Origin: an uncultured Chlamydiae bacterium
GTDB lineage: Bacteria; Chlamydiota; Chlamydiia; Chlamydiales; Parachlamydiaceae
DNA length: 64,000 bases
Assembly (NCBI GenBank): GCA_963754655.1
Contig: CAVWGN010000001.1
Coordinates: forward strand, 2,656,001-2,720,000
Reading direction: 5' to 3'
Part shown: positions 61,928 to 62,425 of the stretch, piece after piece
Position numbering within the stretch: position 1 is the stretch's first letter
Layout: every line of letters starts with the position of its first letter
Notes under the pieces: generated by a model
Database searches by the model: none
Seen by the model: the letters and a program-made list of their open reading frames with translations, nothing else
Told to the model about the DNA's origin: nothing
Program-made: the position numbers and the translations under genes

Positions 61928-62425
61928 CTACTACTTAACCACATTAGTTTTTGCCTATTGAGATGGTTTTAAATTCCTAGGTGTTAAGGTAAGAGATGAG
62001 AGTAGGCTAAGCGACGCATTCAGTCGCCCGCCGCTTCGCTCTGGGCTCTTGGTAAGGGGGATATGGACCCACCGTTCGGTCGCCCTCCGGGCTCGGGTCA
62101 CGGTGGGCTAGAATCAGTCGTCCTCCGGACTCTAGCAGCATTATCAAAACGCCTTGACTAGCATTCTAACAGCATTACCAAGCACCTTACCTAACATTCA
62201 ATGGCTTCTACATTGCTGCTAGAGTCCGGAGGACGACTGATCCTAGCCCACCGTGACCGAGCCCGGAGGGCGACCGAACGGTGGGTCCATATCCCCCTTA
62301 CCTAGAGCCCAGAGCGAAGCGGCGGGCGACTGAATGCGTCGCTTAGCCTACTCTCATCTCTTACCTTAACACCTAGGAATTTAAAACCATCTCAATAGGC
62401 AAAAACTAATGTGGTTGAGTACTAG
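61928..62425. mobile_element. Palindromic element F (B-type)
   Basis: Inverted arms of about 210 bp, same spacer as B, right end AAAACTAATGTGGTTGAGTACTAG. Confidence 0.87.

Follow-up and report, generated by a model that had tools for sequence, protein, structure and literature searches.

The nearest described counterparts of the element analysed here are the REPINs, in which two inverted ends form one long hairpin around a spacer; in the accessible text of PMC3116915 the spacers differ between copies yet the hairpin is kept and compensatory changes are common, a pattern that Bertels and Rainey read there as selection on the hairpin (see also the accessible parts of PMC3337134 and of the RAREFAN preprint, 10.1101/2022.05.22.493013). 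Mirrored changes in hairpins are usually read in this way, as selection on structure, and covariation is standard evidence for a functional RNA. Work on quasi-palindromes describes instead how variation between the arms of an inverted repeat is removed by arm-to-arm copying, through either template switching or homologous recombination (PMC5941160, PMC7202029 and PMC8794818, as far as their accessible sections go); by template switching, for which a two-switch model has been described, a single event yields compensatory changes at several bases (same sections of PMC5941160 and PMC7202029). A third point of reference is subclass 1.2 of the TnpA-Y1 transposases, divergent low-copy genes with a Y---Q--HH signature that, in the accessible part of PMC6006769 (preprint 10.1101/279083), are found mostly in Cyanobacteria and Bacteroidetes and are generally without terminal secondary structures.

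Our analysis concerns a window of 64,000 nucleotides (G000:C1:2656001-2720000) from a chlamydia-like genome of 3.16 Mb in two contigs (G000; C1 and C2), and within it a 498-bp imperfect palindrome, copy F. Copy F can be described as a REPIN-like doublet in which a core resembling the DNA beside a subclass 1.2 Y1 transposase is set within CTAG-ended MITE shells. As in a REPIN, two inverted ends make one long hairpin around a spacer, and many dispersed copies exist (36 of them two-armed), with an intergenic position checked for F and for copy B, the sole other full F-type copy in the window. Unlike REPINs (about 100 bp in the accessible literature), F-type elements measure 350–500 bp, with three units per arm, and many copies carry extra CTAG-ended shells; the neighbouring Y1 enzyme of the family is not a RAYT (class 2, Y---NP), for which reason we do not class the element as a REPIN; and the mirrored changes test here as templated copying rather than as selection.

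The likeness to quasi-palindrome correction is that an arm, or DNA adjacent to it, becomes the reverse complement of its partner in a single tract; the accessible sections of PMC5941160, PMC7202029 and PMC8794818, however, deal with short repeats (arms of <20 bp, 18-bp reporters) or with RNA genes, as against 130–210 bp here, and in our case a multi-copy mobile family makes the tract profile readable from one genome. With subclass 1.2, five of the seven full-length Y1 proteins of this genome share the Y---Q--HH signature, and the genes are likewise divergent and low-copy, but they differ from the published picture in having inverted multi-unit arms and populations of gene-less doublets, and in occurring in a chlamydia-like genome. 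Arm homogenisation as a process, and this type of element, are known in kind; what is added here is evidence for neutral, mid-arm, probably in-place copying, together with evidence against a conserved functional loop. Among the papers listed by literature searches with limited reach into subscription journals, judged by title or by title and start of the abstract, none sets copying against selection as the cause of REPIN arm changes and none describes these chlamydial elements; in the accessible text of PMC3116915 and PMC8266576, gene conversion appears in the reference list only.

Anatomy of copy F and candidate partner enzymes

The features of the two full copies and their surroundings, in window coordinates, are as follows.

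61928..62425, no strand: copy F, 498-bp imperfect palindrome, a repeat element without genes
61928..61985, plus strand: outer shell of the left arm, a MITE-like end with a CTAG-TACTC motif, decayed at two places in F
61986..62136, plus strand: left-arm core, three REP-like units with variable linkers between them
approximately 62019-62049, 62068-62112 and 62113-62136, plus strand: the REP-like units of the left core
62001, plus strand: C>A substitution private to F within the genome, its mirror image lying at 62352 on the right-arm side
62137..62217, no strand: loop, 81 nt, asymmetric, with a ~33-nt internal duplication
62218..62425, minus strand: right arm, core 62218-62367 and shell 62368-62425
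60489..61775, plus strand: left neighbour, a DUF4116 repeat protein gene outside the element
62463..63929, minus strand: right neighbour, a TLC ATP/ADP transporter gene outside the element
23067..23567, no strand: copy B, arms 23067-23275 and 23360-23567, loop 23276-23359
22905..23070, no strand: shell-only palindrome of ~165 bp, its terminal CTAG common with copy B

Copy F is predicted to fold as single-stranded DNA into a single hairpin (-280 kcal/mol, z -39). Each arm has a ~58-nt outer shell and a core of 150 nt, in which variable linkers separate three REP-like units. Short palindromic units that are conserved can be seen within the arms, and a single arm folds no better than its shuffles (z 0.24). 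The left-arm shell of F is missing from core-only copies, which start at arm position 59, and core-only copies with different shells also occur. Both F and B lie between open reading frames, the two genes flanking F being convergent. No Rfam family reaches its gathering score within the element, and an E-value scan of six loci gave sub-threshold, miRNA-type hairpin matches only; the one Rfam match of the window, Prion_pknot at 31185-31221, is probably spurious, falling in a glycine-rich coding repeat of two low-complexity ORFs rich in glycine and histidine (30922-32189). The left neighbour belongs to a cluster of DUF4116 paralogues with 75-nt tandem repeats (53032-61775, and again at 351-1886), the last of which has a frame that stops within the repeat array, just ahead of F; amid the cluster lies an IS605 OrfB/TnpB-type gene of 424 aa (53963-55237).

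The shell behaves like a DDE-type MITE, judging by its ends and target sites. Its motif has 242 matches on C1 (123+119) and caps several unrelated hairpin families, and CTAG is duplicated where shell-only elements have inserted into F-type arms (C1:606526 and C1:2002138); no empty site was seen for F itself. IS630-type MITEs target CTAG. The genome has eight DDE_3 matches, among them an intact IS630 (C1:954916-956053) that shares with the shell the CTAG-TACT end, although the likeness stops after the eight terminal nucleotides; unlike IS630-type MITEs, the shell has no autonomous IS with the same terminal repeats among the eight DDE_3 matches, DDE_5 gave no match, and IS701, considered as a shell partner, was not found.

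The genome further holds nine Y1_Tnp matches, seven of them full-length, and five of these seven proteins carry the Y---Q--HH signature, including that of locus L007, which has HUH as well. Against the RAYT profile NF047646, L007 gives no match and the other Y1 proteins score 21–26 bits, compared with a cut-off of 80. The flanks of the Y1 genes hold units of differing genome-wide hairpin families; downstream of L007 lie a partial F-type unit and then a full F-type doublet, and the locus is without an intact upstream arm. The nearest Y1 relative lies in a Chlamydiales record and, with the TLC ATP/ADP transporter and the DUF4116 arrays, marks the genome as chlamydia-like. L041 (68%), the closest relative of L007, has a weak F-like arm upstream (E 7e-5); this is the sole such arm among the 25 other loci scanned besides the seven of this genome, and likewise among 17 Y1 relatives from genome contigs. 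An orthologue of the F-type Y1 gene was not found in G001, G002, G003, G015 and G048 (best 42–43%). A partnership between the F family and a Y1 enzyme of the L007 type is, on this thin sequence evidence, likely. Inverted arms of several units often also border subclass 1.2-like Y1 genes from other phyla and from related chlamydiae (loci L042, L045, L046, L051, L053, L054, L056, L058, L063 and L065).

Arm homogeneity, loop divergence and relatives

The sequence-only reading of this DNA held that the arms of each copy match each other better than they match the same arm of the sister copy. The arm strings that it quoted lie in F and B where it placed them, and its central statement holds: the left and right arms of F differ by 4 substitutions in 208 plus one gap (1.9%) and those of B by 2 in 208 plus one gap (1.0%), compared with 18/206 for the left arm and 16/206 for the right between the two copies (8–9%). 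The four arms together have 27 variable alignment columns, of which 19 are mirrored, bearing out the statement that differences between the copies recur in each copy's other arm, and 8 are confined to one arm. At the site of the private C>A change of F, its 97.6% sister (C1:1845886) has C in both arms.

A BLAST search of the genome with one arm returned 44 plus-strand matches; setting aside seven without a partner and one mis-paired composite leaves 36 two-armed copies, selected by likeness to the reference arm and not by symmetry, dispersed over the genome and with one on the small replicon C2. For the 27 copies that remain after excluding six with loop inserts and three truncated ones, the arms of a copy differ by 3.0% on average (median 1.9%) as against 11.2% between copies, and 347/351 quartets are concerted; with shuffled partners the mean is 10.9 +/- 0.55% (minimum 8.9% in 1000 shuffles). 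In a tree of all 54 arms, 16/27 copies form an exclusive pair (nine starred, two identical, five with bootstrap 84–92), with the two arms of F paired at 98/84 support in the full-length tree, such that the proposal that left and right arms of each copy are sisters stands for this part of the set; the other 11 are either chimeras or fall into polytomies with sister copies that are nearly identical. Exceptions to the concert are five copies whose arms are 7–11% asymmetric, and some sister copies that group by side. A gradient with greatest symmetry next to the loop was considered and rejected, the within/between ratio being lowest at 60–120 nt.

The suggestion that the unpaired spacer stays largely conserved, and may be functional, fares differently. 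Between F and B the loop differs at 7/81 positions (8.6%), equal to the arms. Loops fall into classes of 48 nt and of 81–84 nt, and in same-class pairs of copies loop divergence exceeds that of the inner arm in 77/91 and 61/78 cases (138/169), with an overall divergence of 17% for loops and 11% for arms; the loop is thus at least as divergent as the arms, and a conserved functional loop finds no support in these figures. At G000:C1:632301-632482 an F-type loop contains about five tandem 33-nt loop units, from which we conclude that loop length changes by slippage.

Distant homologues (70–78%) are held by 3/40 relatives, none of them syntenic as far as seen. For the outer two units, the within/between ratio is 0.29 in G000, 0.77 in G015 (nine copies) and 0.98 in G001 (two copies); G015 and G001 are fragmented drafts, with several matches at contig ends, so symmetric copies may be missing from these comparisons. 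In G015 the outer units favour concerted pairing in 30/36 quartets; in the innermost unit, the left and right forms differ in the same fixed way in 8/8 copies. G002, an independent four-contig assembly, has one related copy with almost identical arms, in which ~90 nt are perfectly mirrored and occur nowhere else in that genome; within it, L012:1298-1346 is a repeated terminal shell of its own (~49 nt, 43 further matches) that was not found in G000.

In E. coli genetics, long palindromes persist where the SbcCD or ExoI nucleases are lacking. We found sbcD in 0/5 genomes and mutS in 5/5; G000 has recA, and a search of it for ExoI found none (0/1). The lack of these nucleases would let such long palindromes survive here. 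Loss of sbcD, or MutS, was examined as the cause of the contrast between lineages and rejected, neither gene correlating with it; since the weakly homogenised G015 and G001 are also without sbcD, its loss does not explain the contrast.

Mirrored private substitutions and mirrored loops across inserts

Mirrored differences between distant copies are mostly shared by descent, and we accordingly scored private substitutions, seen in one copy only, as either mirrored or confined to one arm. The counts are 17 mirrored and 59 one-arm in the F family (32 copies), 14 and 42 in the 47018-family (87 copies), 9 and 33 in the 2742595-family (31 copies), and 2 and 16 in a shell-only family (13 copies). Taking the first three families together, 40/174 private substitutions are mirrored, where chance would give ~1 (means with deranged partners: 0.7, 0.03 and 0.09, respectively); independent double hits therefore cannot produce them.

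Mirroring also depends on position along the arm. Within 60 nt of the loop 4/55 private changes are mirrored, as against 36/119 beyond (p=0.0008, three families), and in 30-nt bins outward from the loop the mirrored shares are 2/24, 2/31, 10/31, 11/28, 13/35, 2/18 and 0/7, thus peaking at 60–150 nt and dropping towards the outer end. This effect is post hoc, having been noticed after binning at 60 nt, and substitutions within one copy are not independent events; it holds at p<0.005 for cut-offs of 40–70 nt and fades at 80 nt (p=0.10), and its direction is equal in all three families with per-family values of p=0.005 (47018-family), p=0.21 (F) and p=0.23 (2742595-family). A tract for which pairing is required at either end would give such a mid-arm peak, as in fold-back copying or in RecA-dependent exchange with flanking homology.

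Further traces of copying are seen where elements have inserted into F-type copies. At C1:1323782-1324357, a 121-bp CTAG-flanked element (C1:1324010-1324130), with three other full-length sites on C1 in other flanks and a partial copy on C2, sits in a CTAG just after the loop, and the right half of the locus is a near-perfect reverse complement of the arm plus the formerly unpaired loop, across the insert. The simplest reading of this arrangement is that the strand folded back at the terminal repeat of the insert and that the left half was then copied. Similar mirror-copying across an insert is found at C1:874766-875573 and at C1:906390; a screen of 40 candidates in G000 for locus-specific flanks mirrored outside elements gave no clear case. 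The mirrored private substitutions and the mirror-copied loop together lend support to the earlier proposal that one arm is re-templated from the other.

Probable copying between arms and its alternatives

We consider it likely that a mid-arm stretch is occasionally synthesised anew, in place, on the template of the other arm; that this happens in place we infer from indirect footprints. During replication, the new strand would copy the first arm, the loop and the inner part of the second arm, then fold back and copy the first arm over a tract of tens to ~100 nt (intramolecular template switching), before rejoining the normal template ahead of the outer end of the arm. The inner 50–60 nt would act as the primer in this scheme and would for that reason be spared conversion. 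A similar pattern at the edges would result from RecA-type conversion between the inverted arms, and between these two routes we lean only modestly towards fold-back template switching. New copies would spread whole, their asymmetries included, by transposases acting in trans, putatively a Y1 enzyme for the cores and a CTAG-targeting DDE enzyme for the shelled copies.

An unlikely alternative, though the best-surviving one, is that the arms are made equal at transposition, whether by MutS repair of a single-stranded hairpin or by building the doublet from one arm, and thereafter only decay. The ingredients exist: Y1 HUH transposases are present, one with an F-type copy directly downstream; the related IS608 moves as single-stranded DNA (accessible text of PMC3116915); mutS is present; 3/27 copies are without any arm substitution, and one copy has identical arms despite a 1.4-kb insert in its loop. 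Sister copies, however, inherit the same asymmetries on the same side (1536785/1941724, 764097/2217884 and 467955/2321476, the last of these pairs at six columns), hence duplication does not always symmetrise and spreading can carry mismatches along. Birth from one arm would not spare the inner 60 nt and, given that the 60 nt beside the loop are rarely converted, whole-stem repair of an excised hairpin likewise fits poorly. Nor is a filter acting at transposition visible in the outer arm, where the mirrored share of private changes is the same at constrained and at variable columns (14/45 and 22/74, p=1.0).

We give still less credence to an element-driven form of conversion, in which a nick made by the Y1 transposase at a REP-like unit of one arm would start its re-synthesis on the partner as template. 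All families tested have REP-like units of the types that flank Y1 genes, conversion peaks mid-arm, where the units lie, and its strength varies between lineages. Against this, template switching by the host predicts the same profile without such an enzyme, L007 is without an intact upstream arm, and no tract end has been traced to a fixed cleavage site. Were it true, it would amount to a mode of replication for REPIN-like DNA, whose doublets would keep and spread their own symmetry, and the ‘compensatory’ changes of REPINs would be explained generally without selection.

That selection maintains pairing within an RNA or single-stranded DNA hairpin, fixing compensatory changes one at a time, strikes us as very improbable, and as a sole cause it is already largely refuted. 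In its favour are the very stable fold, the position of F between convergent genes and the reading of REPIN changes by Bertels and Rainey cited above (accessible text of PMC3116915). A private mirrored change would, however, need two independent hits at one pair, for which chance gives <1 per family, and mirrored indels and a mirrored loop exist; selection of this kind would not spare the loop-proximal stem, and no Rfam family matches. Convergent gaps are, moreover, not enriched for the element (8/35, compared with 124/750 gaps >300 bp, on crude ORF calls). Among the remaining mismatches 180/472 (38%) are transversions, and wobble-compatible mismatches show no agreement of strand within copies (294/557 pairs), hence no strand-consistent G-U bias; with the equal mirroring of constrained and variable columns, this means that the data show no sign of selection for pairing or of a filter at transposition.

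That each copy owes its matching arms to a consensus formed during assembly or polishing is scarcely credible, in that 24/27 copies keep arm-specific substitutions and several are 7–11% asymmetric, the same mirroring occurs in the independent assembly G002, neither the position effect nor the mirrored loop is expected from it, and a 151-nt record (run X2), which joins unique flank to 68 nt of the left arm of F, the only arm covered, agrees for 140 nt without a difference before ending in 11 letters unlike that arm. DNA contigs of three soil runs cover the region thinly, with copies mixed, and no RNA run is listed among those containing it.

Copying between arms, as preferred here, has a bearing on how such signals are interpreted. 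In this genome the signal that is usually taken as selection on structure does not favour variable sites and leaves a gap beside the loop, and so points to DNA copying. If copying is unbiased in direction, about one third of private arm mutations would have passed through conversion (2x40 of 2x40+134). The genome thereby serves as a natural read-out of conversion tracts in inverted repeats of 130–210 bp, and the comparison of mirrored with one-arm private changes offers a cheap test for classical REPIN populations.

Several copies are embedded in nested insertions. At G000:C1:1630111-1632833 an IS630, another IS and another F-type copy have entered an F-type copy, whose present right arm is a hybrid, the outer half resembling the far original arm and the inner half the new neighbour; conversion was considered for this chimera (C1:1632339), which recombination of the newly inserted copy with the old right arm explains better. 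On the 35-kb second replicon, G000:C2:23703-24922 is a nested stack of elements that includes an F-type core with nearly identical arms. Within the window, an IS4-family transposase gene (23893-25338) lies inside a CTAG-shelled hairpin element (23662-25487), with a short GC-rich palindrome repeated on either side of it; hairpin units look like landing sites for IS elements.
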